Source: Candidatus Nealsonbacteria bacterium DGGOD1a
GTDB lineage: Bacteria > Patescibacteriota > Minisyncoccia > Minisyncoccales > UBA5738
Assembly: GCA_022530585.1 (NCBI GenBank)
Contig: CP092821.1
Coordinates: forward strand, 1,089,509-1,153,508
Length of the DNA: 64,000 bases
Direction of reading: 5' to 3'
Shown: positions 3,237-51,561 of the stretch, piece after piece
Layout: the number at the start of each line of letters is the position of its first letter
Numbering within the stretch: the stretch's first letter is position 1
Translations under genes and position numbers: made by a program
The notes under the pieces: generated by a model
What the model was told of the DNA's origin: nothing
Database searches by the model: none
The model's input: only the letters and a program-made list of their open reading frames with translations

Positions 3237-3597
3237 GGGGATGTAAGGCTTCGATGGGAAGCCGGTCTCGCGATCGCAAGCCAAGTAGCCGGATCTTGTA
3301 AAAACCGGCAAACTTCAAAAGTGCCAAATCATTCGCATTTAGCGCACCTGAATTAGTCTACGCTTAATAGCCGACTAAATCTGTCCGATGAACGGATTCT
3401 CCATTAAATTTATCGGGCATAACCTTTTGGAGATAGGGTTCTCTTCCGCCTTAAAGAGCGCCCGAAACAAACAAGGCGAAGAATCCAAGAATTTTGTCGG
3501 GTTTTTATCCTGGGTTCTCAAACAAACCGGACTAAGCTTGTAGATATCGCGCGCCACGGTTTTTCAGATACGGGTTCAAGTCCCGTCGTCTCCACAA
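3237..3597 (+). ncRNA. ssrA: tmRNA (SsrA)
   Basis: The 5' GGGGATG pairs with the 3' CGTCTCC. The 3' end has a tRNA-like T-arm, CGGGTTCAAGTCCCG. The internal tag frame from GCA at 3308 reads (A)NFKSAKSFAFSAPELVYA and stops at TAA 3365-3367. It lies next to smpB. CCA is not encoded. Confidence 0.85.
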
Positions 3598-3630
3598 AAC
3601 AGCGGCAGATATTATATTTCATAAAAACGA

Positions 3631-4131
3631 GTGTTTAAAAAACCGCCTATCAACAATCAAATAAGAGCCGCGCAGGTAAGATTGATCGATGAAAACGATC
3701 ATCAAGTGGGCGTTGTTTCACTGAGAGAGGCCTTGGAAATGGCCTACTCCCGGCACCTTGATCTGGTACAGGTTACCGACAAAGTCGCTCCCCCGGTGGC
3801 AAGAATCACCGATTACGGAAAATATCTTTACGCTCTGCAGAAAAAGGAAAAAAACACCCGCACCAGCGAAGTGAAAGGAATCCGGCTGACCTACAACATT
3901 TCCCCGCATGATATGGAAACGCGGGCCAACGCGGCGAGAAAATTTTTGGAAAAAGGCGATAAGGTCAAAATTGAACTCCGGCTAAGAGGCCGCGAAAAAG
4001 CCTTTGGAAATCTTTCAAAAGAGAAAGTTGAGCAATTCCTGGCAATCTTAGCCAAGCTCACCCCCTACAAAATCGACAAAGAAATAAAACGGGAAATGGG
4101 CGGATTCAATATGATAGTTTCAAAAGGTTAA
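3631..4131 (+). CDS. infC: Translation initiation factor IF-3
   Basis: INNQIRAAQVRLIDENDHQVGVVSLREALEMA is a typical IF-3 N-terminus. The infC-rpmI-rplT order is conserved. The non-ATG (GTG) start is uncertain. Confidence 0.9.
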   Translation: MFKKPPINNQIRAAQVRLIDENDHQVGVVSLREALEMAYSRHLDLVQVTDKVAPPVARITDYGKYLYALQKKEKNTRTSEVKGIRLTYNISPHDMETRANAARKFLEKGDKVKIELRLRGREKAFGNLSKEKVEQFLAILAKLTPYKIDKEIKREMGGFNMIVSKG

Positions 4132-4189
4132 ACCATAAAATCATAAAAACATTTAATCATAGAATCATAAAACACGGATTCAGGAAAAC

Positions 4190-4375
4190 ATGAAAACAAG
4201 AAAATCAATCACAAAGCGTTTCAAGATCACCAAGAACGGCAAAATTATGCGCCGGGCGACCGGATCCTGCCATCTGCGTTCGAAAATGTCGGGCGACAAA
4301 GTCCGCGCCGGCCGCAAATGGGTTCCGTTAAACGAATCCGAAGCCAAAAAAATCAGAAAACTAATCATTAAATAA
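4190..4375 (+). CDS. rpmI: 50S ribosomal protein L35
   Basis: 61 aa. MKTRKSITKRFKITKNGKIMRR. Confidence 0.95.
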   Translation: MKTRKSITKRFKITKNGKIMRRATGSCHLRSKMSGDKVRAGRKWVPLNESEAKKIRKLIIK

Positions 4376-4377
4376 AA

Positions 4378-4478
4378 TTAAAAGTGTAAATATCAAAAAT
4401 CAAAATGACAATGTAAAATTACCAAATTTAAAAATTTGAATTGTAATTTTACACTTTGATTTTTACATTTTAAACTAT
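4378..4478. repeat. AT-rich word palindrome (GTAAAATT / TGTAAA words) upstream of rplT
   Basis: GTAAAATTACCAAATTT ... AAATTTGAATTGTAATTTTAC, flanked by AAAGTGTAAA / TTTACACTTT. Confidence 0.6.
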
Positions 4479-4482
4479 TTTT

Positions 4483-4830
4483 ATGCCACGCGTAAAACGA
4501 GGAACACTGCATCACAAAAGAAGGGCCAATATAATTGAATATACAAAAGGATTCAAATGGGGCCGGAAATCGAAACTAGCCGCGGCAAAACAGGCCATGA
4601 TGAAGGCTTTGAGTTACAACTACCGCGACCGCAAGGTAAAAAAGCGCGATACCCGCGCCATGTGGAACATCCACATCAATGGCATCTGCCGCGCTAACGG
4701 AACGAATTACAGCAAATTTATCGGCGCTTTGAAAAAACAGAACATCGTAATCGACCGCAAAATCCTCTCGCAATTAAGCGAAACCCGGCCCGAACTATTC
4801 CAAGCCATAATGGCCAAAGCCGCCAATTAA
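4483..4830 (+). CDS. rplT: 50S ribosomal protein L20
   Basis: 115 aa. MPRVKRGTLHHKRRANIIEYTKGFKWGR. Confidence 0.95.
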   Translation: MPRVKRGTLHHKRRANIIEYTKGFKWGRKSKLAAAKQAMMKALSYNYRDRKVKKRDTRAMWNIHINGICRANGTNYSKFIGALKKQNIVIDRKILSQLSETRPELFQAIMAKAAN

Positions 4831-4857
4831 AAATATCGGTTTAATTTAAAACTCAAT

Positions 4858-4884
4858 CCCCTCCTCCCGGAGGGGTTTTGTTTT
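4858..4884 (+). terminator. Rho-independent terminator after rplT
   Basis: CCCCTCC-TCCC-GGAGGGG stem-loop followed by TTTTGTTTT. Confidence 0.8.
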
Positions 4885-4890
4885 ATAACT

Positions 4891-5014
4891 TTGAATTACG
4901 AAACGCTTTGCATTTGGGGTCTATCCCTTGCTGCCTGTCCCGAGTATTCCCGAGGGATAATCGCAAGGGTTAGACCCCTTCAAGGCATTTGAATTTAATG
5001 TTTTCGTAATTCAA
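4891..5014. repeat. 124-bp nested palindromic element
   Basis: Outer arms TTGAATTACGAAA / TTTCGTAATTCAA. Inner arms GGGGTCTATCCCTTGC / GCAAGGGTTAGACCCC. Confidence 0.7.
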
Positions 5015-5073
5015 GATTATAATAAACTTGCGTCCGTTCTATTTAACGGGCGCATTGGATTGCGATACGCTAA

Positions 5074-5250
5074 GGCGGCTTCCATAAATAACTTCCATAT
5101 ATTGCCCGCGGATTTGGTTCAGATTTCAATTTTCCGACCGAGCGATATTTGAGGCGTAGCTTTGCTACATTAAAAATATCGCGACCGAGAAAAATTGAAA
5201 TATGAAACAAAGACGGGGGTATGGTGTGGAAGTTATTTATGGAAGCCGCC
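5074..5250. repeat. 177-bp MITE-like palindromic element with perfect 24-bp terminal inverted repeats
   Basis: GGCGGCTTCCATAAATAACTTCCA at 5074-5097 and its exact complement at 5227-5250. Inner arms carry TTTCAATTTT ... AAAATTGAAA. No ORF inside. Confidence 0.7.
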
Positions 5251-6008
5251 TAATTATTCAAATTTTGAAAATTCGGGCAAATAACCGCGCATCTGCCGGC
5301 AACGCACATCGACGCGAACGGACAGCGCGACATAGCCAGATAATCGCCCGGAGTGGAACACTCAAAATCATGGACGCAGACAATATCGGTCATTTTTTCC
5401 ACTTTATAATCAAAATCCGCGTTAAAATAGGTTTTGGCGCGTTCGCGGTTAATCTGAAAAGTTTTTTCATTATACGAATTTAAGGCTTTATTGCGGTATT
5501 CGGAAGGAAAAAATTCGTCAATGTCGCGCGCGAAATAACTGCCGTCGCGCGGCGCCCAGTGCGACAGCGACCCATCGTCAAGCTTGATAATTTTTGCCGG
5601 ACCGGCCGCCCCGCTTCCCTCGTATATCTTCCCGCCATCCAAATAAAATTCTTCGCACGAATAATTCAAATAAACCGCTTCTTCGCCATCGCTTTGGCCG
5701 ATTTTTTCATAAGCGCAAAAAACTTTGCCGCCTTTCGCCGCCGCGGCGAAATTTTTCTCAAGATATTCCGCGATATCGCAATCGATATTGTAAACCGACA
5801 GATCGCATTCGCCGGCGAATGGAGTTTCCGTTTTCTCGGATTTTACCGCGTCGATATCGGAATTTCTTTCCTTTCTGATCGAGAGGCCTTCACTGTCATA
5901 ATCGGGTATAATCGTTTGCGGAATTATCGATACCGCCACAAAAGTGAGAATCGCGGCCGAAATCAATATAAATATGGTTAATTTATTCATATAAAATTTT
6001 GTTATCAA
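5250..6008 (-). CDS. Hypothetical secreted or membrane-anchored protein with a Cys-rich C-terminus
   Basis: N-terminal hydrophobic anchor NKLTIFILISAAILTFVAVSII. The C-terminus reads CVHDFECSTPGDYLAMSRCPFASMCVAGRCAVICP. No family recognised. Confidence 0.55.
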   Translation of the reverse strand: MITKFYMNKLTIFILISAAILTFVAVSIIPQTIIPDYDSEGLSIRKERNSDIDAVKSEKTETPFAGECDLSVYNIDCDIAEYLEKNFAAAAKGGKVFCAYEKIGQSDGEEAVYLNYSCEEFYLDGGKIYEGSGAAGPAKIIKLDDGSLSHWAPRDGSYFARDIDEFFPSEYRNKALNSYNEKTFQINRERAKTYFNADFDYKVEKMTDIVCVHDFECSTPGDYLAMSRCPFASMCVAGRCAVICPNFQNLNN

Positions 6009-6516
6009 GCTGGATCAACGCGGCAATAATTGATTGTTTCACGGTATCTTTGCGGCACCATCGGTTTTTAGTCAGTATCCCGATCGCGCCAAGCGACAAA
6101 CCGATTTTGGGGTCGCCGGTCAAGCCCAGTTCATAAAACGCCTGGTTGATATCCCTGCCCTTCCCCACCAATTCAATCGCTTTGGGCGGATATTCAAACG
6201 CCGCCGATGTCCCCAGATAATATCTTTGCCCGTCATAAAACGCGCAAACGCACAAATTCATAAATCCGGTGGCAGCCTGCCCAACCGACATCAACCCGTC
6301 TTCCACGCCCACCGAAAAATCACAATCGCTAAACGCGGTTTTAGCCCGATTTTTGGCGCCGCGAACAGTTTCTTCCAAGCTTTTGGGCTGATCGTCCACG
6401 CCGGACTCCGTTCCGATCGTCTTGATCCGGGCTTTGTTCAAAAAATCATATTCGGCGGTTATTTCCCGCAAAGCGTCGGCCTTGATTTTATTTTTGGTGC
6501 CGATATTTATTTTCAT
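5983..6516 (-). CDS. Non-canonical purine NTP phosphatase (inosine/xanthosine triphosphatase, YjjX/DUF84-like)
   Basis: KINIGTKNKIKADALRE...ESGVDDQPKSLEETVRGAKNRAK...VGVEDGL matches the YjjX-family layout. Confidence 0.7.
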   Translation of the reverse strand: MKINIGTKNKIKADALREITAEYDFLNKARIKTIGTESGVDDQPKSLEETVRGAKNRAKTAFSDCDFSVGVEDGLMSVGQAATGFMNLCVCAFYDGQRYYLGTSAAFEYPPKAIELVGKGRDINQAFYELGLTGDPKIGLSLGAIGILTKNRWCRKDTVKQSIIAALIQLDNKILYE

Positions 6517-7197: not shown

Positions 7198-9057
7198 TCA
7201 TTCCAAAATAGCTTTAATGCGCCGCGCCCCCGACGACGACGATTCTTCTTTGGCGATTTTGAAACGACCGAGATTGCCGGTATTTTCCGCGTGCGGTCCG
7301 CCGCAGATTTCCTTGGAAAAATCTCCGATGGCGTAAACCGTCACCCGTTCGCCGTATTTTAAACCGAACGCGCCCATCGCGCCCGCGATTCTGGCGTCTT
7401 CCAAACTCATTTCTTCTTTGGCGACGGGAATATTCTGGCTGATTTTTTCGTTAACCAACACTTCAACCTGTTCTATTTGTTCCGGCGCCATTTTTTGCGG
7501 ATGGGAAAAATCAAACCGCAACCGTTCGGCGGTGATATTGGAGCCGCGCTGGACAATGTGTTCTCCCAAAACCAAACGCAGTGCCGCCAAAAGCAAATGC
7601 GCCGCAGTGTGCAGTTTCGTCGTTTGCTCGCTCGCGTCCGCCAGCCCTCCTTTGAACATTCCCGCGGAAGCGGTGCGCGATAATTCCTGATGCCGTTTCA
7701 AGCCGGCCCCGAATTCATCTTGAGCGGCGGCGGCAACGCCAATGTTTTTTTCTTTGGCAATTTCCAAGCTCAATTCCAGCGGAAATCCAAAACTTTGATA
7801 AAGATCAAAAAGCTGTTTGCCGTTTAAAACCGCGCCGGCCTCCTTGGCCGATTTTTCAAATTCTTTCAACCCCTCATTGAGCGTTTTTTTAAATTTGGTT
7901 TCTTCTTTTTCCAATTCGGCGGCAATGGTTGCTTGCGGCAGTTTGTATATATTTAAATATATATTTGAATATATACTTGCCATTTCCGGCAAAAAGTTTT
8001 TTTCAATCCCCAATTGATTGCCCTTGACAATCGCGCGGCGGATCAACCGGCGGCAAAAATAGCCTTGCGCCTTGTTGGACGGCAACACCCCGTCGGCGAT
8101 CAAAAACGACGCCGAACGAATGTGGTCGGTAATCACCCGCATCGCGCCGGTCATTTTGACATCGGCGCCATATTGCTTGCCTGATAATTTTTCAATTTCG
8201 GCGATCGCCGGAAAAAACAAATCGATTTTGAACGCGTCGGGATCGTTGTTGCTCGCGGCGGCAATCCGCTCCAATCCCCCGCCAAAATCAACATTGTGCC
8301 GTTCCATTTTCACCACCGCCCCGCTTCGCTTCGCGTATTCCATAAATACATTGTTGCCAATCTCCAAAAACCGGCCGCAGTCGCAATTGGGATGGCAGGG
8401 CAAATCTTTCCACGGCGAATTTTCGTGGAGTTTTCGCTCCGCGCCGAAATCCCAAAAAATCTCCGAATCCGGCCCGCCCAGCTCGCCTTCGGGCATAGAT
8501 TGCGGCGTGCCCGATCGGGACCACCAATTCTTTTTTTCGTCATAATAAAAAATCCGGCCGTCTTGCATTCCTTTTTCCTCGGCGAAATCAACATCTTTGG
8601 CGTTAATTCCCGCGGCCGCGAACAATTCTTTCCACACATTGGCGGTTTCCCCGTCCTTTGGAATTCCCGCCTCCGGCAAACCGCGAAACGCGGTCGCGTA
8701 GATATTTCTCGGGTCCAGCCCGATTTCCTTGGTCAAAAATTCAAACATCCAGCCCAGCTGTTCTTTTTTGAAATAATCGTCCAGCGACCAGTTGCCCAGC
8801 ATCTCGAAAAAAGTCATGTGCCGGTTGTCCCCCGCTTCATCGATATCCTGCGTGCGCAAGCATTTTTGCGCGTTGGCCAGGCGCGATCCCAGCGGATGGC
8901 TTTCCCCCAGCAAATAAGGAATCATCTGTTGCATTCCCGCCGAAGTAAACAAAGTGCTCGGATCGTTATCCGGCACCAAACCGCAAGAAGGCACGATCGC
9001 GTGCCCCTGTTTTTTGAAGTAGTTAAGATATTTTTCTCTTATTTCCGAAGTATTCAT
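7198..9057 (-). CDS. alaS: Alanyl-tRNA synthetase, short form lacking the C-terminal C-Ala/DHHA1 region
   Basis: SEIREKYLNYFKKQGHAIVPS...FTSAGMQQ at the N-terminus. Editing-domain motifs HTAAHLL and CGGPH are present. It is only 619 aa. Confidence 0.93.
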   Translation of the reverse strand: MNTSEIREKYLNYFKKQGHAIVPSCGLVPDNDPSTLFTSAGMQQMIPYLLGESHPLGSRLANAQKCLRTQDIDEAGDNRHMTFFEMLGNWSLDDYFKKEQLGWMFEFLTKEIGLDPRNIYATAFRGLPEAGIPKDGETANVWKELFAAAGINAKDVDFAEEKGMQDGRIFYYDEKKNWWSRSGTPQSMPEGELGGPDSEIFWDFGAERKLHENSPWKDLPCHPNCDCGRFLEIGNNVFMEYAKRSGAVVKMERHNVDFGGGLERIAAASNNDPDAFKIDLFFPAIAEIEKLSGKQYGADVKMTGAMRVITDHIRSASFLIADGVLPSNKAQGYFCRRLIRRAIVKGNQLGIEKNFLPEMASIYSNIYLNIYKLPQATIAAELEKEETKFKKTLNEGLKEFEKSAKEAGAVLNGKQLFDLYQSFGFPLELSLEIAKEKNIGVAAAAQDEFGAGLKRHQELSRTASAGMFKGGLADASEQTTKLHTAAHLLLAALRLVLGEHIVQRGSNITAERLRFDFSHPQKMAPEQIEQVEVLVNEKISQNIPVAKEEMSLEDARIAGAMGAFGLKYGERVTVYAIGDFSKEICGGPHAENTGNLGRFKIAKEESSSSGARRIKAILE

Positions 9058-9120
9058 AATTTTTAATTACCAATTTCCAATGCCTCAATTTCCAAACAAA
9101 AAGTCAGCATTTTGGTTTGC

Positions 9121-9160
9121 GAAGGTCTATCCTCGGCGTACTCGCAGAGGTTAGTCCTTG
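9121..9160. repeat. Hairpin GGTCTATCCTC...GAGGTTAGTCC in the alaS upstream region
   Basis: Same GGTCTATCC...GGTTAGNCC design as the inner hairpin of 4891-5014. Confidence 0.5.
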
Positions 9161-9411
9161 GCAAACACCCGCATTTTATCCATTTCTAACATTAACAAAA
9201 ATTTTATGAAGATCGCGCGTTATAAAATACAAACCAACATAATCTTTCCATCTGGCGCGCATTCCCAGCGCGAACGCCTTCATCGCCGCCAGAGTAAATA
9301 AATCCGGCATTTTAACGATCAAATCGAATTTTTGAAAATATTCAATAGATCAATTTACCACAAAACCGCCCCAAAATCCACTCCCGCCCTTCCTGTTTAT
9401 GCAACACAAAA

Positions 9412-9607
9412 ACCCGCAAAGTAATCCCTCACTGGGAGAAGAAAAAATAGCGAATTTGGAGGTCAATCCTCGGTTTGTGAGAGGTTTGACCTCCAAATTC
9501 GCGCCATCCCTTACCGCAAACTCGTTGAGGATTGACCTCAAAATACAAATTCTCGAGGTCAAACCTCAACAAATTTGCTCCCCAGTGAGTGATTACCCCG
9601 CAACCCT
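9412..9607. repeat. Compound palindromic element: an outer stem enclosing two long hairpins, with four copies of GAGGTCAAWCCTC
   Basis: Outer stem GTAATCCCTCACTGGGAG (9421-9437) against CTCCCCAGTGAGTGATTAC (9579-9596). Hairpin 1 has perfect 17-bp arms at 9450-9466 and 9486-9502. Hairpin 2 spans 9524-9570 with one mismatch. Confidence 0.75.
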
Positions 9608-9651
9608 TGACAAAATTGAAATTTAGAACAATATATCATCAAGGTGAAAAA

Positions 9652-9789
9652 ATGAGAGGACACACAAAGCTCTTTGTATTAGAAATGGAAATGCGTCCGT
9701 ATGAAGAAAAAATCGACGCAATGCTATCTTTGATTCATGGCCAACAAAATGCCATCATAATAAAAAAATTCATAGAAAAGGGCAAATAA
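9652..9789 (+). CDS. Small hypothetical protein (45 aa)
   Basis: AAGGTG Shine-Dalgarno about 7 nt before the ATG. No homology recognised, and it could be spurious. Confidence 0.25.
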   Translation: MRGHTKLFVLEMEMRPYEEKIDAMLSLIHGQQNAIIIKKFIEKGK

Positions 9790-14072: not shown

Positions 14073-14106
14073 GACATTCTCACATTCTCAAGAATGTTGG
14101 AATGTC
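14073..14106. promoter_or_regulatory. Near-palindromic candidate operator, copy A (between the arsR-like stop and the deacetylase start)
   Basis: ACATTC-TC-ACATTC-TCAA-GAATGT-TG-GAATGT. The same 32 nt occur in inverted orientation at 14424-14455. Confidence 0.5.
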
Positions 14107-14423: not shown

Positions 14424-14455
14424 ACATTCCAACATTCTTGAGAATGTGAGAATGT
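14424..14455. promoter_or_regulatory. Near-palindromic candidate operator, copy B (upstream of the arsR-like gene)
   Basis: ACATTCCAACATTCTTGAGAATGTGAGAATGT is the reverse complement of copy A. It lies 43-74 nt upstream of the start codon. Confidence 0.5.
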
Positions 14456-20996: not shown

Positions 20997-21251
20997 TTAT
21001 TTAGCCCCTTGCGGCGGAAACTGAGGCATATTCAACTGGGTAGCCAAAGTCCCAAGACTTTTATACATCTTTATTGATACTTTTGTTAAAGTTATAACTT
21101 CCGCCGGTTTGAGCAAAAGCTCTACCTTATCGGCATATGAGCGCCCCTTTATTGCGACATCAATTTTGTCACAAATCGGACAATCCTGCCGGTGATTCCT
21201 CATATCAGCGCTCAGCGCACATAAAAAACAAACATTTATTGACCTTCGCAT
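20997..21251 (-). pseudogene. Hypothetical gene whose 5' end is interrupted by the IS630-family element
   Basis: The annotated ATG lies inside the IS terminal repeat. After removing the IS and one TA, the frame stays open into 22366-22420 (..VSTLDEETKVALNVCFLCALSADMRNHRQDCPICDK..). Confidence 0.45.
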
Positions 21252-21269
21252 AATAGATTGACTATCATA

Positions 21270-21834
21270 TCAATATAATTCGGAAGCCTTTAAAAATCCT
21301 TTCATTAATTCTTTGTCTCCGGCGATCTTGCATTTGCCGGATTTGACCGCCCGCCCCAGGGCGGGCAGGCCTTGCGGCCGCAAGTTGCAGACATATTTGT
21401 TTTTCATCGCCGCCCAGAAATATTCAACGGGATTAAGCTCGGGCGCGTAGGCCGGAAATCTCTCAACTCGCAACCAGTATTTTTGAGTTTTTAAATATTC
21501 TTTGACGATCTTGGCGCGATGTGCCGCCAATCCATCCCAGAAAAGAAGCAATCTTTTTCCCTTAAACCAGTATTTTAATAATTTTAAATATACAAGCACA
21601 TCTTCTTTTTTGACGCTTCCTTTTTTGCTTTTCAAAAACATCGCCGGATTGCTTCCTGCCGGCGCGCAAACCAGCGTTGCCGTCAAACTCATTGCGGCCC
21701 ACGATCCGGTGGATTTGATTACCGGCGTTTTGCCTTTAATCGCCCAGGTTTTTCTGACCGTGGGGCGGTCGGAAATTCCCGATTCATCATGGAATCCCAG
21801 CTTAAAATGATGTTTTTGCGCCCATTTTTTTTAA
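21270..21834 (-). CDS. IS630 transposase, DDE catalytic part (orfB, reached by a +1 shift at the A8 run)
   Basis: FHDESG ... LLFWDGLAAHRA ... YAPELNPVEYFW forms the DD(35)E triad. The frame opens exactly at the A8 run (21825-21832). Confidence 0.8.
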
Positions 21835-22308
21835 CCTTGGAAAGGTTTTTACTCTCCAAGTTTTGATGGCTTTCTCATCTCTTTCTTTGGCTTTGATTTC
21901 GGGTTTTTGGCTGGTAAAACCCAGCGAGATTACCACCCTCCAGACATGGCCGGGGTGATATTTTGTTCCCGATATCTTTTTGATCAGATCTCGCAGTCTT
22001 GCCAGCGTCCAAAGATCGGTGGCATATCCCTGCTTTTGCGCTCCTTTGAGGATCGCTTTTTTGATTTCGCGTTTTTCCTCTTGGGTCAATTTGGAATCCG
22101 GCCCGGGATTGCCTTTGCTTTTCAGGCCATCCCATCCTTGGGCTTTGTATGCTTCCACCCAATTGCTCACCGCTTCAAAACTGACTCCCAGTTTTTTGGC
22201 GATTTTATATTGGGTTTGGCCTTTTTCCCAAAGCTTTATCGCTTTGATTCTTCTTTTCTGAAGATCATCTTTGCTTTTGCAAGATGGTGAAGATTTACGA
22301 TTTTTCAT
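21802..22308 (-). CDS. IS630 transposase, N-terminal HTH part (orfA)
   Basis: QYKIAKKLGVSFEAVSNWVEAYK and ATDLWTLARLRDLIKK are the HTH motifs typical of IS630/Tc1-like transposases. Confidence 0.85.
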   Translation of the reverse strand: MKNRKSSPSCKSKDDLQKRRIKAIKLWEKGQTQYKIAKKLGVSFEAVSNWVEAYKAQGWDGLKSKGNPGPDSKLTQEEKREIKKAILKGAQKQGYATDLWTLARLRDLIKKISGTKYHPGHVWRVVISLGFTSQKPEIKAKERDEKAIKTWRVKTFPRLKKMGAKTSF

Positions 22309-22456
22309 ATGCCTTCATTATCCCACAAAGGCGATTATAGTCAAGTTATTATGCGAAGGTCAATAACGCTACTTTTGTTTCTTCATCCAAAGTACTCACC
22401 TGCCAGACAAAGTTAAGCAAATTTATAAGATAATGTCAAAATCATCTCGTTCGCTC

Positions 22457-25529: not shown

Positions 25530-26675
25530 ATTGCAAAACTTCTTTTAACCAAGCCTCAATTAATTCTGCGACTTGATTTTCACATTTGTGATATGTGTGG
25601 TCGGCGCCATCGATTATCGCGGTTTTTGAATTTTGGTTTTTCAAATGGCTGGCGACGATTGCCAGGTCTTCTTTTGGCGAGTTAATACAAAGATTTTCTT
25701 TGGAGCCATAGAACGCCAGAATCGGCATTTTGATTCTCTCCAGCTTCTCAAAATTGCCGTTTTCGAAAACCGGGAAAATATCCGCCTTGGTGTCTTTGCC
25801 GAATTCATCGACGAAACTTTTTGCCGAAATGTAATATGTGCCGCGGATCGGCCGCGGCAACAATTCGTTGCCCCTCCCCTGCGCAACCATAGCTTCCGCT
25901 TCCGCAAGATCTTTTTCAAAATTCTGCGGATCAAATTTTTTCAATAGCCCGGCGGCATCTGCCGGCGACATCAAAACCAGCGCGGTAACATCCGCGGGTA
26001 TTTTTTCATTTAAAAAATAAATTGCTTTGCCGCCGCCCTGGCTTAGCTCGACACTAACTAAGTTTTATCGTTTTAGCAGGATTTATTTGATCTGGATTCT
26101 AGGCGCGAGGAGCGTAATGTAGTCGTAGCACTACATTAGCGACAAGCAACAACGAAGACAGATCAAATAAATCCTGCCCTGCGGGAACATTGAAATTAAA
26201 TCGTTTTCCGCTTCACTCTTCCTCAATGTATCTGAAAAAGATACAATTTCGTCATCGTTCATTGAAACCGACTTAATTTGAATGTTCTAAAACGATAAAA
26301 CTTAGTTAGTGTCGAGCCTCCCTGCAAAATTATTTTTTCATAACCGCGCGACCGGAAAAAATCCAACCACGCGCCAATGTCCAAAACGCATTCTTCAAAA
26401 ATATCAAATGCCTGCCCGATTCTTTTTATCTGGTCGGTATCGCCCACCCGAAAATCCGCGATCTGGTCATGGCCGCGCAAATTAACCGTTAAAAACCCGA
26501 ATCCGGCCGCGGTATAAGTTTCGGCCATCGCGTCCAAAAACGCATTGGCATAAAACCCGCCGGCCCGGCCGTGCAAATGCAAAATGCCGATTTTCGATCC
26601 GGCGTCCGGCTCAAAAAGCAACCCGGGCAATTTCAATTGATCGCAAGTATCTGTCCGGCAAAAAGTAGTTTTCAT
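25510..26675 (-). pseudogene. Alpha/beta hydrolase gene interrupted by a 272-bp TIR element
   Basis: An N-terminal ORF (26259-26675) and a C-terminal ORF (25510-25974 plus an upstream open frame). Deleting 26046-26317 restores ..KIILQGVSQGGGKAIYF.. with a GVSQG nucleophile elbow. Confidence 0.8.
26046..26317. mobile_element. MITE-like non-autonomous element (272 bp) with 31-bp terminal inverted repeats
   Basis: GCTCGACACTAACTAAGTTTTATCGTTTTAG at 26046-26076 and its exact complement at 26287-26317. Nested internal inverted repeats at 26076-26094 / 26159-26177 and at 26115-26138. No ORF inside. Confidence 0.75.
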
Positions 26676-35379: not shown

Positions 35380-35385
35380 ATATTT

Positions 35386-35524
35386 TTATTCTTTTTATAC
35401 CCTGTCGGCTCGCCGCGGGGAACAAAAAGAACGAGGATTCCTTAGCAAAGCGCAAGTAATCTTGAAGGAAACATCCTTTGGTTGATGGCGGGGTTAATAT
35501 CCCGACATCAATGTATTTTTAATT
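35386..35524. repeat. Dispersed structured repeat, copy 1 (139 bp)
   Basis: Matches the reverse complement of 51422-51538 almost base for base, except for a 23-nt insertion (TTAGCAAAGCGCAAGTAATCTTG). Confidence 0.85.
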
Positions 35525-35573
35525 ATCGCCGTTATTGGGAGATACTGACATAATCGCGGGAAAAAAACAATTT

Positions 35574-36713
35574 TTATTTTAATATGTCCAACAATTCCTG
35601 GAATACAAAAACGCGGTTCCTCTTTCTTCCCGGCTCCTCTTTTAATATCCCCAACTGGATGAATTTTTCCAAAAGATTATAAATGGTTTGGGGATTTTTA
35701 GTTTTTAATTTATCTTTTATTTTCGCGTATGTGATTATCGGCGAGACAAAAAGTGATTCCAACAGATTGAGCGCGTAAACCGAATTGGCGGCGGTAATTT
35801 CTTTTTTCAAACGATCGTTTAATTCCAAAATTTTCGAGATTGAATTTTGCGTCTTTAACGATTGAGTTATCAACGCCAGCAAAAAAAATTTAAGCCATGA
35901 TTCCCAGTCGCCCCTTTCGGTCACTCCGCGCAGATAACCGTAATAGTCCTGCCGGTTTCTTTCAAAATATTCGCTGATATACAACAACGGCGACGACAAC
36001 AAATCGCGCTGGTACAAAAACAGCGGAATCAACAACCGGCCCACGCGGCCGTTTCCGTCGCGGAACGGATGGATTGACTCCAGCTGATAATGCGCCGCCG
36101 CGATCTGCACCAACAAATCTTTTTCCTGATTTGAGTTAACATACTTTTCCCAATTCGACAGCAAGGCCGGCAATTCCGCCGGCGCGGGCGGCACATAACT
36201 GGCCTCCTCAATCCGCGCTCCGGGCATGCCAATGTACACCTGTCCGGTCCGGAATTTGCCGCGGTCTTTCTCCGCGCCGCGCGATAAATCAAGCAACAGA
36301 TAATGGATTTTTTTAATAAATGATTGGTTAATCGATTTTGTTTTCAACTCCTCCATCGAAAAATTCATCGCCCGACGATAATTGATAATTTCGGTGATTT
36401 CTCGATTCTGGCCGCCGGCAAGCTCGCCGGCGGGTTGGGCTTCATATTGAAAAACATCTTCCAGCGTCGCTTGCGTGCCTTCAATGCGAGAGCTCAAAAC
36501 CGCCTCTTTCGTCAGCAACGGAGTTACCAGCAATTCCGGACTCAAAATATTTTTTCGCAACAAACCGTTCAATTCGCCGATCGCGCCGTGCGCTTCGCCA
36601 ATCACGCGGATCAGCGAATCATAATTTATTTTCGGAGGCAACGGATCCAATATATAAGATTTGATCGGCATAAAAAGTTTGTTGAAATAAATCAAGCGCT
36701 TGAGTTTTGCCAA
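35574..36713 (-). CDS. Fic-family protein (AMPylase type) with a C-terminal winged-helix-like region
   Basis: Canonical Fic motif HPFRDGNGRVGR. Confidence 0.9.
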   Translation of the reverse strand: MAKLKRLIYFNKLFMPIKSYILDPLPPKINYDSLIRVIGEAHGAIGELNGLLRKNILSPELLVTPLLTKEAVLSSRIEGTQATLEDVFQYEAQPAGELAGGQNREITEIINYRRAMNFSMEELKTKSINQSFIKKIHYLLLDLSRGAEKDRGKFRTGQVYIGMPGARIEEASYVPPAPAELPALLSNWEKYVNSNQEKDLLVQIAAAHYQLESIHPFRDGNGRVGRLLIPLFLYQRDLLSSPLLYISEYFERNRQDYYGYLRGVTERGDWESWLKFFLLALITQSLKTQNSISKILELNDRLKKEITAANSVYALNLLESLFVSPIITYAKIKDKLKTKNPQTIYNLLEKFIQLGILKEEPGRKRNRVFVFQELLDILK

Positions 36714-36847
36714 TAATTCCTCATGCTTTTTATTCTCCGCGGCAAGCTTGCGGCGGATAAAAAGAATAAGGTCTTTTGTTATTCCAAGGTATTGGAATAA
36801 CGGCCTCTGTTATTCTAATCTTAAAGCAACTTGGATGATGATGCAAC

Positions 36848-42576: not shown

Positions 42577-42705
42577 AATCCCAAAGTTCGAATTTCAAAT
42601 GTCAAATCAAGCCCAAATTTCAAATGTCAAAAAGAATGCCGCGTTCCTTTTGAACTTTGAGCTTAGAGCTTTTCTTGACATTTGAATTTACAATTTTGGC
42701 ATTTA
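42577..42705. repeat. Word palindrome (TTCAAATGTCAA words) upstream of pnp
   Basis: TTCAAATGTCAAA occurs twice in direct orientation and TTGACATTTGAA once in inverted orientation. Confidence 0.6.
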
Positions 42706-44984: not shown

Positions 44985-47126
44985 ATGCTGAAATTAAAAG
45001 ACAACGCGATCAAAACAATGGCCGGAGATCTGGCTGGCGGGAACATCCCGGCACAACCCGCGATGGAATCGCCGGAAATCGCCGATTTGAACCAAAAACT
45101 GAACGAAGCTTTTGGCATTTCAACCGGCATAAAAAATACGGCGGCGGAACAATGGAAAACGGTAAAAACAACAACCGCCCCGACACCGCCAAAAGCAACT
45201 TTGGCCGTCCAACAGGTTCCCCAACAAAAAGAAAACAATGATGACGGAAACGATGAACAAGAAGATAGAAAAAACGACGAAGAAAAAAAACTCCGCCAGA
45301 TTGAAGATTTGAAAAATATAAAAATACAGCTTGAACGGCAAAAACGGGAAGCGGCAAAGCTGGCCGAAGAAAAAGCGAAGCGCGAGGAAGAAACAACCGG
45401 AACGCAAAAAACTGAAGAAGAACAGATACTCAACGGAGAAGAAAAACTTGAAGAAGAAAAAAGGAAACGCGAGGAAGCGGCAAAGCTGGCCGAAGAAAAA
45501 GCGAAGCGCGAAGAAGAGGAAAAAGCGAAAGCGCGAAAAGCCGAAGAAGAAAGATTGCGGATCGAAGAAGAAAAAAAGGCGCGGGAAGCGGCAAGGCTGG
45601 CCGAAGAAAAAGCGAAGCGCGAAGAAAAACAGAAAAAACTCGAAGAAGAAAGACGGATCGCCCAAGAAAAAATGCGGCAAGAGACTTTGCGCGCGCGGGA
45701 AGAAAAAGAAAAAGCGCGGGAAGAAAAGCGGCGGCGGCTGGCGGCTTTGGAATTAGAGCGCGAACAGAATTTGCAAAGAGAAAAAGAACTGCAAGAACAG
45801 GAAATTCTCCGGCGCGATACAGAAACGCAAAAACAAGCGGCGAAAATCGACAACAGTCAAGAAACAAATAATTTGGATGGCGCGTTTGAAAGATTGATTA
45901 TGAAATTGAATGACAAAAAAAACGGCCTTGAAAAAGAATTGGCGAGTTTCCCGGCGAAAAAAATACCGCTTGAACAAAAAAAAATCAACCTTGGAAGCGA
46001 AGTTTCGGCGATAAAAGACAAAGAATTATCCATCGCGGAAGAACGGGAAAAAGAAATCGAAAGATTGGGAACGGATGAAAAAGCGAAACTTAGCCAAAAA
46101 TTATCGCCACAACAGAAAAAAACAATCGAACAAAAACTTTGGTCCATCGAAGATCGGCGCAAGGAAATCGAAAAACAGCGCTGGAATATTGAAGACCGCA
46201 TCAATAAAATACTTGCCGAAGCCGAAACCACAAACAACCTGATCAAAGAAAAAGACGAAGAAGCGGAAGCGATTCGGCAAAAAATAAAAAACACGGACAA
46301 TCAAATAAAACTGGTCCGATTCGCGATCGAAAAAGGAAAACTGGAAGAAGAATTGATCGGGAATATCGAAGAAAGAGAATCTCGCTTACCTTTGCTTGAG
46401 GAAGCAACCGAAAGAAAGAATTCCACAATGAACAGATTTGAAGAATTGGCCGAAAAAGAAAATTCTGTCAACGCCGAACTGAACGCGATCGAACAACAAG
46501 AAAAACAAGCCGCCGATCCGGTGCAAAAAAGAGCGGCCGAACAGGAACGATGGCGCGTTACCGGCGTTTTAAAGTCGACCACCCGGGCAAAATGGGAAAG
46601 CGATGAAAAAGCCAAAGACGCGAAAACCCGGCTGCAATCAATCCAAGGAGAAATTGACGCGATCAGCGCGATAATAGATAAAATACAAAGCAAAATTTTT
46701 AACAAAGAAGCCGCTCTGGGAAAAGAAGGACTGCCGGTGGGAAAAATCCGCGATTCGATCTCCGATTTGTTCAAAGAAAACGACATTAAAATCGATCAAG
46801 AACTTTTAAAAGACATAATTCAAACCGACGACCGGCCCCAAAAGCCAGACCCTGTTCTTGAAGAAAAAATTCCCGCGGCAACCACGGTTCAAAAAATTAG
46901 CGCTCCGGCGGAAATAAAACCCGTTGTCGCGCCAAAATCAACGAATGAGGCGCCCGCCGACGACCCGGCGGAAATAAAACCCGTTGTCGCGCCGGATACC
47001 GCCAATTTTGTCCCGAAAAATCCAATCGCGGAAAACAATTCTCCCGAAAAACAAGCCGGGCGAAACGCGATAGAAGAACCGGTGCCGGATAATTCCGCGC
47101 CAAACGATCCTCTAGGCATAAGATAA
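44985..47126 (+). CDS. Large K/E-rich coiled-coil protein with tandem repeats
   Basis: 713 aa. AAKLAEEKAKREEE occurs three times, followed by a long heptad-like region. The C-terminal PAEIKPVVAP occurs twice. Confidence 0.65.
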   Translation: MLKLKDNAIKTMAGDLAGGNIPAQPAMESPEIADLNQKLNEAFGISTGIKNTAAEQWKTVKTTTAPTPPKATLAVQQVPQQKENNDDGNDEQEDRKNDEEKKLRQIEDLKNIKIQLERQKREAAKLAEEKAKREEETTGTQKTEEEQILNGEEKLEEEKRKREEAAKLAEEKAKREEEEKAKARKAEEERLRIEEEKKAREAARLAEEKAKREEKQKKLEEERRIAQEKMRQETLRAREEKEKAREEKRRRLAALELEREQNLQREKELQEQEILRRDTETQKQAAKIDNSQETNNLDGAFERLIMKLNDKKNGLEKELASFPAKKIPLEQKKINLGSEVSAIKDKELSIAEEREKEIERLGTDEKAKLSQKLSPQQKKTIEQKLWSIEDRRKEIEKQRWNIEDRINKILAEAETTNNLIKEKDEEAEAIRQKIKNTDNQIKLVRFAIEKGKLEEELIGNIEERESRLPLLEEATERKNSTMNRFEELAEKENSVNAELNAIEQQEKQAADPVQKRAAEQERWRVTGVLKSTTRAKWESDEKAKDAKTRLQSIQGEIDAISAIIDKIQSKIFNKEAALGKEGLPVGKIRDSISDLFKENDIKIDQELLKDIIQTDDRPQKPDPVLEEKIPAATTVQKISAPAEIKPVVAPKSTNEAPADDPAEIKPVVAPDTANFVPKNPIAENNSPEKQAGRNAIEEPVPDNSAPNDPLGIR
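45345..45630 (+). repeat. Intragenic tandem repeat: GCGGCAARGCTGGCCGAAGAAAAAGCGAAGCGCGA three times (periods 126 and 111 nt)
   Basis: Copies start at 45351, 45477 and 45588. Confidence 0.8.
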
Positions 47127-47132
47127 ACACAT

Positions 47133-48713
47133 ATGGCAATGACAATTGATCAATTTGGACAAGCCATTAAACGCAAATATCCGCAATACCGCGATATGCC
47201 GGATGCGGAATTGGGGGAAAAAATGCTGGCCAAATATCCGCAATATTCGGATATGGTTAGCGTTGGCGACATTCAAACCGCTCCCGGGCAAACAACGCCG
47301 GAAATAACCGCCCAAAAACAAACCGAAAAAGTTCAAAAAGAACAAACGAAACAAAACAAAACCGAAGAAAAAATTCCCGGCAAACCGCCCGCGGTTCCTC
47401 CCGACGCCAGTTCAAAAAAACCGGCGGAAAACATCGTCGGCAACCCCGCAAAAATCGTTTCAAACCACGAAGATTCCCCGTCCGAAGACAGTATCTGGAA
47501 GCCGGGAGCAAAACCGGGCGATATCGCGGGAAAAACAGAGCCTGTCGATAATACAAAAACCGCGCCCGAAACAAAATCTTCAAAAATAGAAGAATCTTTA
47601 TCGAAAACCGCATCTTTTTACCGCGAACAGATTGAATCATCTCCCGCGACAAAAATTCGCGCATTGCCCATCGCGCCCGCCAAAGGAGAAGTTGTCGCGC
47701 CGAAAAATCAAGAAAAAACGCCTGAAAAAAATAACGAAAACGCTCCAAATGGCGGCGAAACCGTGAAAAAACCGATAATAAACGACCCAACCGCGGAAGC
47801 GGAAAGACCCAGCGCCCGTATTTTGGAAAGCCGATGGGAACAAATCAAAAAATCATCCTCGCCCGCGGCAGGCGCGACATCAACCGCGGCACCTCCGGAA
47901 GCCTCCCCGGCAATGCCCGAGCGACTGAAACCAACCGGCAAAAACAAAGTTTTGGCAAGAGTGCTTGTTGTCGTGGCGCTGATTGGGATAATTGGGATTA
48001 TTTTGGCCGTTGTTTTAACCAAAAACAATACGCCGACAATCATTAAAAAAACAACCGGGGAAAACTCAACCACCACAACCACCGGCAAAAAAATAGACAC
48101 CGCCGAACCAACCGCCGAAAACAACAAAAAAAATAACGGCGAATCGCCTTATATGGCGACAGTTTCCACCATACCTATCTATACCGAAGATCTGGCAAGC
48201 GTCCCGAATCTGCTTTCGCCCTATCTGCAAACATCGCTCGGATCAACCGGCTACTATCAGGTTTCCATCGTGGACAAAAAGAATAACTCCAAGATTGGAT
48301 TAAAACAATTTTTTAACATATACAAAATTAGCGCGCCCGAAATATTCTACTCGTCCGTAAGCGATGATTTCACGCTTTTCATCTATTCAAACAACGGCAA
48401 GAACCGTCTGGGTTTTGTCGCCCCGGCCGGCAATACCGAATCATTGAAAACGGCAATGGAAGGCTGGGAGGGGAGCCTGCGAACCGATACCGACAATCTA
48501 TTCAAGTTGTTGGGCAGAAAAACCCAAGACCCGGAGAAAGAACTTCGATTTAAAACCGAAAACTCAACCGGCGGAACCGAATACCGATCAATGGTTTTTC
48601 TGCCGGAAACCGATAACTTTTCAATCAATTGGGCGATTTACAACGATAAGTATTTTGTTTTCGCGACTTCGGCCGATACTCTGAAAAAAACTTTCGACCA
48701 ATTGCCAAAATAG
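47133..48713 (+). CDS. Single-pass membrane protein: KYPQY-repeat N-terminus, disordered linker, TM helix, C-terminal globular domain
   Basis: KRKYPQYRDM / AKYPQYSDM duplication, TM helix VLARVLVVVALIGIIGIILAVVL, and a C-terminal beta-rich domain. No family asserted. Confidence 0.6.
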   Translation: MAMTIDQFGQAIKRKYPQYRDMPDAELGEKMLAKYPQYSDMVSVGDIQTAPGQTTPEITAQKQTEKVQKEQTKQNKTEEKIPGKPPAVPPDASSKKPAENIVGNPAKIVSNHEDSPSEDSIWKPGAKPGDIAGKTEPVDNTKTAPETKSSKIEESLSKTASFYREQIESSPATKIRALPIAPAKGEVVAPKNQEKTPEKNNENAPNGGETVKKPIINDPTAEAERPSARILESRWEQIKKSSSPAAGATSTAAPPEASPAMPERLKPTGKNKVLARVLVVVALIGIIGIILAVVLTKNNTPTIIKKTTGENSTTTTTGKKIDTAEPTAENNKKNNGESPYMATVSTIPIYTEDLASVPNLLSPYLQTSLGSTGYYQVSIVDKKNNSKIGLKQFFNIYKISAPEIFYSSVSDDFTLFIYSNNGKNRLGFVAPAGNTESLKTAMEGWEGSLRTDTDNLFKLLGRKTQDPEKELRFKTENSTGGTEYRSMVFLPETDNFSINWAIYNDKYFVFATSADTLKKTFDQLPK

Positions 48714-51367: not shown

Positions 51368-51421
51368 CTGACAACTATTATGGTATAAAAACGGCTTAAA
51401 ATGTCAATGCCTTTATGCTAA

Positions 51422-51538
51422 AATTAAAAATACATTGATGTCGGGGTATTAACCCCGCCATCAACCAAAGGATGTTTCCTTTGGAATCCTCATTCTTTTT
51501 ATTCCCCGCGGCGAGCCGACGGGGTATAAAAAGAATAA
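51422..51538. repeat. Dispersed structured repeat, copy 2 (117 bp)
   Basis: Reverse complement of 35386-35524 minus the 23-nt insertion. It ends 23 nt before the rsmA start codon. Confidence 0.85.
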
Positions 51539-51561
51539 AGCCGCGCGGCACCGAAAAAAAT

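Follow-up and report, generated by a model that had tools for sequence, protein, structure and literature searches.

A 176-bp palindromic element upstream of alaS in Candidatus Nealsonbacteria DGGOD1a resembles a miniature terminal-inverted-repeat transposon with REP-like hairpins

Candidatus Nealsonbacteria DGGOD1a belongs to the CPR/Patescibacteria and lives as an epibiont on Methanothrix. Its closed genome of 1.16 Mb (CP092821) has 39 predicted transposases, and the supplementary files of the paper describing it contain no list of transposase families (bioRxiv 10.1101/2022.04.20.488981). We analyzed a window of 64,000 nucleotides of this genome, in which a compound palindrome lies 365 bp upstream of alaS (7198-9057, minus strand, encoding a 619-aa AlaS that matches the DGGOD1a protein with 100% identity). 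What is this palindrome? The initial annotation offered a structured sRNA, a recombinase or transposase binding array, or a non-autonomous mobile element. Our analysis indicates that 9421-9596 is probably a 176-bp miniature non-autonomous transposon with terminal inverted repeats, similar to the elements known as MITEs, and we put the probability of this reading at roughly 0.7.

The compound palindrome is real, with the outer stem, the two hairpins, and four copies of the 13-mer GAGGTCAAWCCTC all present in the 176 bp. A repeat finder placed the arms of the outer inverted repeat at 9421-9436 and 9581-9596 (15 of 16 positions complementary), those of hairpin 1 at 9450-9471 and 9481-9502 (21 of 22), and those of hairpin 2 at 9516-9539 and 9555-9578 (21 of 24). 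The perfect 17-bp arms first described for hairpin 1 are contained in the longer arms given here, and the 16-nt arms described for hairpin 2 are present but not perfect, as they include one A.A mismatch. The 13-mer occurs exactly four times, at 9459 (+), 9481 (-), 9527 (-), and 9555 (+), compared to 0.05 copies expected by chance in 64 kb, and no site with up to one mismatch was found outside these four copies in the 64 kb scanned. Thus, the reported number of copies is correct, but their orientation (+ - - +) is not strictly alternating, as had been stated. The features referred to below are as follows.

9115 to 9166, minus strand: degenerate A-type hairpin, separate from the insertion, about 60 nt upstream of the alaS start
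9413 to 9420, no strand assigned: left copy of the 8-bp target-site duplication, CCCGCAAA, 7/8 identical to the right copy
9421 to 9437, plus strand: left terminal inverted repeat, GTAATCCCTCACTGGGA
9450 to 9502, no strand assigned: hairpin module A (hairpin 1), with 13-mers at 9459-9471 and 9481-9493 and one T.T mismatch (A.A on the minus strand)
9516 to 9578, no strand assigned: hairpin module B (hairpin 2), with 13-mers at 9527-9539 and 9555-9567
9580 to 9596, minus strand: right terminal inverted repeat, GTAATCACTCACTGGGG on the minus strand
9597 to 9604, no strand assigned: right copy of the 8-bp target-site duplication, CCCGCAAC
9607 to 9612, plus strand: hand-read TTGACA box (promoter-like -35) of the divergent ORF 9652-9789, 10 bp from the right end of the element

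The terminal inverted repeats are 16 to 17 bp long and start with GTAA at the 5' end. Read on the alaS strand, hairpin B precedes hairpin A between the two terminal repeats, with hairpin B consisting of GCGAATTTGNGGAGGTTTGACCTC, the loop GAGAATTTGCATTTT, and GAGGTCAATCCTCAACRAATTCGC and hairpin A of GAGGTCWAACCTC, a loop of about TGCGATTACGCC, and GAGGATWGACCTC. The ORFs that cross the element (47 to 75 aa) overlap one another on both strands within the palindrome, and the element is both small and without predicted coding capacity, as MITEs are.

The site had been described as a boundary between core and accessory sequence; a variable spacer with a syntenic block on either side is a more apt description. 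In relatives whose AlaS is 77 to 82% identical to that of DGGOD1a, gene order is common on both sides of this spacer, with genes for an ATPase_2/DUF234 protein, a hydrolase or UMPH-1 protein, and a 168-aa protein on one side and with alaS, a gene for a 172-aa protein, and an NTPase gene on the other. The content of the spacer itself, from the 168-aa gene to alaS, differs in every lineage; one relative has a 103-aa gene, another has a NUDIX gene, and two more have NUDIX and flavodoxin genes. The divergent gene beside the element is a 45-codon ORF (9652-9789) in the window, compared to the 103-aa gene (L015 4372-4683) in the closest relative. The segment 9176-9322, which had been compared to part of an AbiEii-type gene, has no Pfam match even at E <= 1.

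This closest relative, with an AlaS that is 82% identical, is represented by three independent assemblies (L015, L016, and L017). All three have the same flanks as the window, homologous right up to the element junctions, and all three lack the 176 bp. On the alaS strand, the empty site reads TTTTGTCAAGGGTTGCGGG followed directly by TTTTTGCGG (given in another extent, by TTTTTGCGGCGCACAAACATGG). The filled site, on the window minus strand, reads TTTTGTCAAGGGTTGCGGG, then the element from GTAATCAC to GGGATTAC, and then TTTGCGGGTTTTTG (in the other extent, the element from GTAATCACTCACTGGGG to CCCAGTGAGGGATTAC and then TTTGCGGGTTTTTGTGTTGCATAAACAGG). The 8-mer GTTGCGGG (alaS strand) is found once in the relative and twice in the window, where the second copy has one change. 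Comparison with relatives therefore yielded both the direct repeat that the initial annotation had proposed to look for at the ends of the outer stem and an empty site. Two points count against reading these features as traces of a MITE insertion: the duplication in the window is imperfect (7 of 8 bases), and an empty site could in principle come from a deletion between direct repeats. A deletion would leave unexplained why repeats abut the terminal repeats in two copies of the element and differ in sequence between them.

The second copy came from a scan of JGI metagenomes with a degenerate hairpin pattern, which led to locus L098 (contig Ga0172380_10002199). The sequence at L098 6245-6416 is approximately 80% identical to the window element over its whole length and has the same order of parts. 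Its terminal repeats read GTAACCACTCACTGGGG at both ends (17/17), and it is flanked on both sides by a perfect 8-bp repeat, TCAACCAA, which differs in sequence from the window duplication. This copy does not neighbor alaS but lies between an HI0933-like flavoprotein gene and an unknown gene, and a related strain has the same locus (L076). Homologous elements at two unrelated loci, each abutted by a different 8-bp repeat, are the mark left by a transposon with a staggered cut of 8 bp, and this element family has inserted independently at least twice. Of the readings first offered, the non-autonomous mobile element is supported, by the empty site, the 8-bp flanking duplication, and the second copy with a different duplication. 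With terminal inverted repeats, an 8-bp duplication that varies between copies, and an empty site in a related genome, the element has several of the characteristics by which MITEs are recognized.

We also found a decayed copy in the spacer between a lysS-like gene and serS (L010), which has both hairpins in order and remnants of both ends. Besides the full copy, 14 kb of the L098 contig contain a solitary sequence resembling a terminal repeat and two free-standing hairpins of the A type. A search for the 13-mer array, which had also been suggested, thus turned up homologous elements and hairpins in other genomes but no further full copy in 84 kb of DGGOD1a (the window plus 10 kb on each side), which counts against the MITE reading. 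The exact pattern of terminal repeat plus 13-mer had 0 matches in the JGI metagenomes; since this pattern does match the window, the collection evidently does not contain this organism's own contig. In viral contigs, hairpin B had no match and the terminal-repeat pattern had one, on a giant-virus contig, which we took as a chance match. BLAST searches of plasmids and phages gave no match, and a literature search for GAGGTCAAWCCTC-type 13-mers returned only unrelated plant and virus papers.

Next to the L098 copy are a reverse transcriptase gene (RVT_1, 3563-4570) and two ORFs (4675-5025, 116 aa; 5424-6176, 250 aa), and the layout of this cassette looks like that of a diversity-generating retroelement or a retron. 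If the element were a retron-type msr-msd RNA gene, its outer repeats would be the a1/a2 repeats around the stem-loops, and the overall shape is indeed similar, with the reverse transcriptase gene 1.7 kb from the L098 copy. However, the 6 kb to each side of the window element contain no RVT domain, two genes and a promoter-like box lie between the L098 element and the reverse transcriptase gene, and the small ORF and the 250-aa ORF there are probably more like parts of a diversity-generating cassette. As the element is in addition an insertion with a target duplication, we consider a retron RNA extremely improbable.

The palindrome could also act as RNA. When we folded both strands, as the initial annotation had suggested, both gave the same three-way junction and both folded far better than shuffled sequence, with RNA parameters (-90.5 kcal/mol and z = -13.1 for the plus strand; -113.3 kcal/mol and z = -13.5 for the minus strand) as well as with DNA parameters (z = -9.2 and -12.4, respectively). 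These values bear on the possibility that the element encodes a structured noncoding RNA, either an sRNA or a cis-acting leader, read from the minus strand and folded as a three-way junction whose outer stem would be extended by G-U pairs into the flanking "duplication." The better folding of the minus strand is consistent with such an RNA, as are wobble positions, where a G-U pair on the minus strand corresponds to A.C on the plus strand; in a hand tally over the whole family, which is weak evidence, they favor the minus-strand orientation of the window by about 8 to 2. A related hairpin is also conserved just upstream of alaS in several relatives. In an RNAalifold analysis of four sequences, the three-way junction was kept and 6 of 63 pairs had compensatory changes, one of them in the terminal repeats. 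These compensatory changes do not separate an RNA stem from transposon ends, because the terminal repeats of a transposon must stay alike and therefore covary as stems do. Further evidence argues against an RNA gene: the window and 15 related loci have no Rfam match at the gathering score (at a relaxed E value, the only matches were microRNA-precursor hairpins far below their gathering scores), the element is absent from the closest relative, a homologous copy occurs at an unrelated locus, and the element reads as upstream of, rather than within, the promoter-like boxes on both sides. The proposed structured sRNA thus drew no direct support from this analysis, and we regard a noncoding RNA as quite unlikely. 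Since its structure is explained as a mobile insertion, the element should not be annotated as an sRNA gene.

As judged from hand-read boxes, the element appears to sit between two divergent promoters, upstream of both and outside their transcripts, with the TTGACA box of the divergent ORF on one side and an alaS promoter-like region near 9150-9190 on the other. A promoter scan did not call the TTGACA box at 9607-9612, and its promoter and terminator matches were at chance level. Between these promoters, the element would most likely be passive DNA, and an effect on the neighboring promoters is a conjecture. Both full copies lie 10 to 11 bp upstream of a -35-like CCTTGACAAAAT of a divergent gene, in the same relative orientation (window 9597-9612; L098 6228-6244, where the TTGACA box is 11 bp away). 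In these two cases, the adjacency to CCTTGACAAAAT may reflect target preference, selection, or coincidence.

If the element is a MITE-like transposon, its insertion would have been catalyzed by a DDE-type transposase supplied in trans that makes a staggered 8-bp cut. Elements of the IS66 family have a terminal inverted repeat starting with GTAAGCG and 8-bp direct repeats (PMC11946415), and examples of IS66 ends begin with GTAAGCGTCC and GTAACCGTCC (PMC12888890); the starts documented in these two papers are GTAAGCG or GTAACCG. Both the window and L098 copies have a GTAA start (GTAACC in the L098 copy) and 8-bp direct repeats, like the IS66 elements in these reports (PMC11946415, PMC12888890). 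Beyond the first six bases, their terminal repeats are dissimilar from those of IS66. On the basis of these ends and repeats, IS66 may be the best-fitting family, which we treat as a lead. No IS66 transposase or element with these ends was found in any sequence read, and no autonomous partner with the same ends was found in approximately 1 Mb of fetched loci or in the viral contigs, another point against the MITE reading. The transposases near the element are IS630-like, IS4/IS5-like, and IS200-like; none is of the IS66 type, and none has GTAA ends. The IS630-like element (21236-22366) has 33-bp terminal inverted repeats that are 91% complementary and HTH and DDE_3 ORFs with the look of a split transposase. 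An IS4/IS5-like gene and a 160-aa IS200-type Y1 gene are found in the 10 kb beyond the window start. The latter gene, about 7 kb beyond the window start (L140 2888-3370, JARDUI010000019.1), is accompanied by unrelated hairpins that are rich in GC, has a YafQ-toxin gene and the IS4/IS5-like gene as neighbors, and is not a member of the 240-aa RayT-like family described below.

Parts of the interior also occur outside the element. Modules A and B belong to a dispersed REP/REPIN-like family of hairpins in genomes of the Paceibacteria type. Hairpin B occurs alone, without terminal repeats and nearly identical, with its loop conserved, upstream of leuS (L110) and at L072 and L134, and L119 has a related B hairpin with the same 13-mers and a different loop. 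Solitary A hairpins are found in L010, 24 nt before the lysS-like gene, at two further places in L098, and upstream of smpB-tmRNA in L095 and 23S rRNA in L092. Others lie at the 3' ends of two genes, one for a histidine kinase and one for a CCA enzyme. Homologues of module A in L098, L076, and L010 have compensatory changes. A single A.A or T.T mismatch, at position 5/9 of the duplex formed by the 13-mers, is present in almost every hairpin of the family and is kept even where the core has been changed by compensatory substitutions (window 9450-9502 and 9516-9578; L098, L010, L018, L044, L053, L092, L095, and others). The two modules inside the MITE-like element may be REP-like hairpins that it captured or inherited, and the internal 13-mers could possibly serve as the transposase-binding array that had been proposed for them.

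The hairpins of this family often lie just upstream of translation genes, namely, serS, lysS-like genes (twice), leuS, smpB-tmRNA, 23S rRNA, and a tRNA gene (L010 3062-3190 and 4724-4769, L008 4515-4568, L110 3302-3364, L095 1505-1551, L092 6482-6528, and L003 7710-7749). The degenerate A-type hairpin at 9115-9166 of the window has counterparts at the same position, approximately 80 nt upstream of alaS, in L018, L019, and L020 (4873-4925), whose AlaS is 77 to 80% identical; these have compensatory changes and share GTGTTTG...CAAACC flanks with the window hairpin. It is absent from L015 to L017, the 82% relative. Taken together, the contexts are diverse intergenic sites that include several aminoacyl-tRNA synthetase genes, and the association with the latter is not exclusive. 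An aminoacyl-tRNA synthetase leader of the T-box type was considered and dropped as a specific explanation, as the hairpins also occur at the 3' ends of the histidine kinase and CCA-enzyme genes and beside genes of metabolism. Integron attC sites were likewise considered for the hairpins that follow one another in intergenic regions of JAKLGH01 and were rejected, because their core sites, judged by eye, do not fit GTTRRRY / RYYYAAC and because a Y1 transposase is present rather than an integrase.

These contexts also bear on whether the 13-mers are double-stranded DNA operators. As GAGGT-N3-ACCTC pseudo-palindromes, the four copies could be binding sites for a dimeric regulator that the element carries upstream of promoters. 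Every 13-mer is itself palindromic, both insertions with terminal repeats lie in the same orientation at the same short distance from a TTGACA box, and alaS can be added to the translation genes that family hairpins often precede. Conversely, the centers of paired 13-mers are 18 to 61 bp apart with no helical phasing (by hand tally), 3' ends of unrelated genes are among the contexts, and no candidate regulator was identified. In addition, the sequences are complementary over stretches much longer than the 13-mers and show covariation there, as hairpins would. An operator array is, in our judgment, very unlikely.

A different enzyme is connected to the hairpins themselves. We scanned a genome collection for inverted pairs of the 13-mer and found 12 loci, all labeled Patescibacteria except for one "Pacearchaeota" bin, with several copies in two of the genomes. 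Each of these two multicopy genomes has a Y1_Tnp gene of approximately 250 aa that is flanked by repeat doublets (L002 916-1686 and L012 3600-4349, 51% identical to each other). Each gene also contains one more copy of the repeat in frame, about 20 aa before the HUH motif, where CTGGTGAGGTCAAACCTCACCAG is translated as LVRSNLT and CTGTTGAGGTCAAACCTCAAC as LLRSNLN. The family of RayT-like Y1 proteins to which these belong has at least 228 members at E <= 1e-5; few come with a source name, and these are Patescibacteria or Paceibacterota bins. A JGI entry names one member "REP element-mobilizing transposase RayT." At the position of the repeat, family members have the peptides RSNL, RSDL, RFDL, RLNL, and KSDF, which are translated palindromes of the GAGGT-N3-ACCTC type. 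Among 118 metagenome loci that were chosen only by DNA pattern, 12 encode a RayT-like homologue. Of the 11 RayT-like loci inspected, 7, including L002 and L012, have a cognate repeat next to the gene as well as within it, and the cores of these repeats are of several kinds; the other five genes are L023 604-1263, L035 3367-3996, L052 1002-1649, L115 1159-1791, and L137 381-1064. The 13-mer is thus a member of a REP-like superfamily that is linked to a RayT-like transposase. A literature search found no paper linking RAYT or REPIN to Patescibacteria, and we know of no report of an in-frame repeat inside a transposase gene. The degenerate pattern also matched tandem GAGG-N5-CCTC arrays with a period of approximately 23 to 110 nt on unrelated metagenome contigs (L045 4346-4589, L091 18-282, L125 152-466, and L039 331-698).

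This link raises the possibility that the whole element is a REPIN- or BIME-like cluster, that is, two REP doublets mobilized as single-stranded hairpins by a RayT-like Y1 (HUH) transposase, in which case the outer repeat would be a third level of hairpin and the flanking repeat incidental. As in a REPIN, a short palindromic unit is doubled in inverted orientation so that it folds into a hairpin, the same 13-nt core is found beside and inside the Y1 genes of L002 and L012 (with related cores at the other five loci), modules A and B occur singly without terminal repeats, and one conserved A.A/T.T mismatch is what would be expected for structure-specific recognition. The frequency of RayT-like genes among the hairpin-pattern loci also agrees with it. 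Y1 transposition, however, makes no target duplication. In both full copies, 8-bp duplications that differ in sequence abut the terminal repeats, and Y1 transposition does not explain these duplications. Furthermore, no RayT-like gene of about 240 aa was found in the 84 kb of DGGOD1a read, and the sole nearby Y1 gene is the 160-aa IS200-type gene with unrelated hairpins. We therefore consider it unlikely that a RayT-like enzyme accounts for the insertion, and a MITE-like transposon remains the preferred explanation.

A broader proposal joins the two systems. The modules could be recognition units of a Patescibacteria-wide RayT-like system that were captured by an element with terminal repeats, which would place DDE and HUH chemistries on one 176-bp unit. 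Targeting or selection might have placed the unit at a fixed distance of about 10 bp from -35 boxes, on their upstream side, and from there it would modulate transcription, and the A.A/T.T mismatch would be a feature for protein recognition. This proposal is speculative, and we think it doubtful as a whole.

Compared with known systems, the element is most like the bacterial MITEs (Correia/NEMIS of Neisseria, ERIC, and RUP), which are 100 to 300 bp long and noncoding, with terminal inverted repeats, a target-site duplication, a strongly folding interior, intergenic positions beside promoters, and presence/absence polymorphism between relatives. Correia elements duplicate TA. The element described here differs from these MITEs in its 8-bp duplication, GTAA ends, and CPR host and in its interior, which consists of two modules that are also found on their own as hairpin repeats. 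With REP, BIME, and REPIN sequences, it has in common short palindromes that are paired in inverted orientation into long hairpins and are intergenic and dispersed, and, as in REP/RAYT systems, a single Y1 transposase gene is flanked by this core in other Patescibacteria. Unlike REPIN/RAYT systems, the compound in the window has terminal repeats and a target duplication and no RayT-like gene nearby, and unlike REP/RAYT systems elsewhere, the Patescibacterial ones also carry the cognate repeat in frame inside the transposase gene. PATEs, which are derived from IS200/IS605, are likewise without genes and built of subterminal hairpins, which in PATEs are recognized as single strands. Neither terminal inverted repeats nor a target duplication are known from PATEs.

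The element family is undescribed, although MITEs as a kind are well known, and it adds an example with a clean empty site in CPR/Patescibacteria, where small mobile DNA is hardly described. The most interesting by-product of the analysis is the Patescibacterial REP/RayT-like system with an in-frame repeat; the data point to GAGG-N5-CCTC repeats, possibly undescribed and Patescibacteria-wide, that are tied to these Y1 genes. Such repeats may be useful as markers for assembly, strain typing, and genome dynamics of ultrasmall symbionts.

Other repeats were seen in the window. A perfect 32-bp inverted repeat, ACATTCTCACATTCTCAAGAATGTTGGAATGT, lies at 14074-14105 and 14424-14455 with 318 bp between its arms and may be a small mobile element. 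Long imperfect palindromes are found at 5073-5251, 26046-26317, and 42577-42703; their arms are 63 to 78 nt long and 74 to 78% complementary, and one of them has a gap of 1 nt. Repeats of 65 to 71 nt (up to 95% complementary) at 35385-35529 and 36699-36769 lie on either side of a Fic-domain gene (35574-36713), and they are found again 16 kb away, at 51417-51539, beside a KsgA-type rRNA methyltransferase gene. The region from 45000 to 48000 has an extreme AT skew (0.40 to 0.61) and contains degenerate 72-nt purine-rich repeats that begin with GAAGAAAAAGCGAAGCGCGA.
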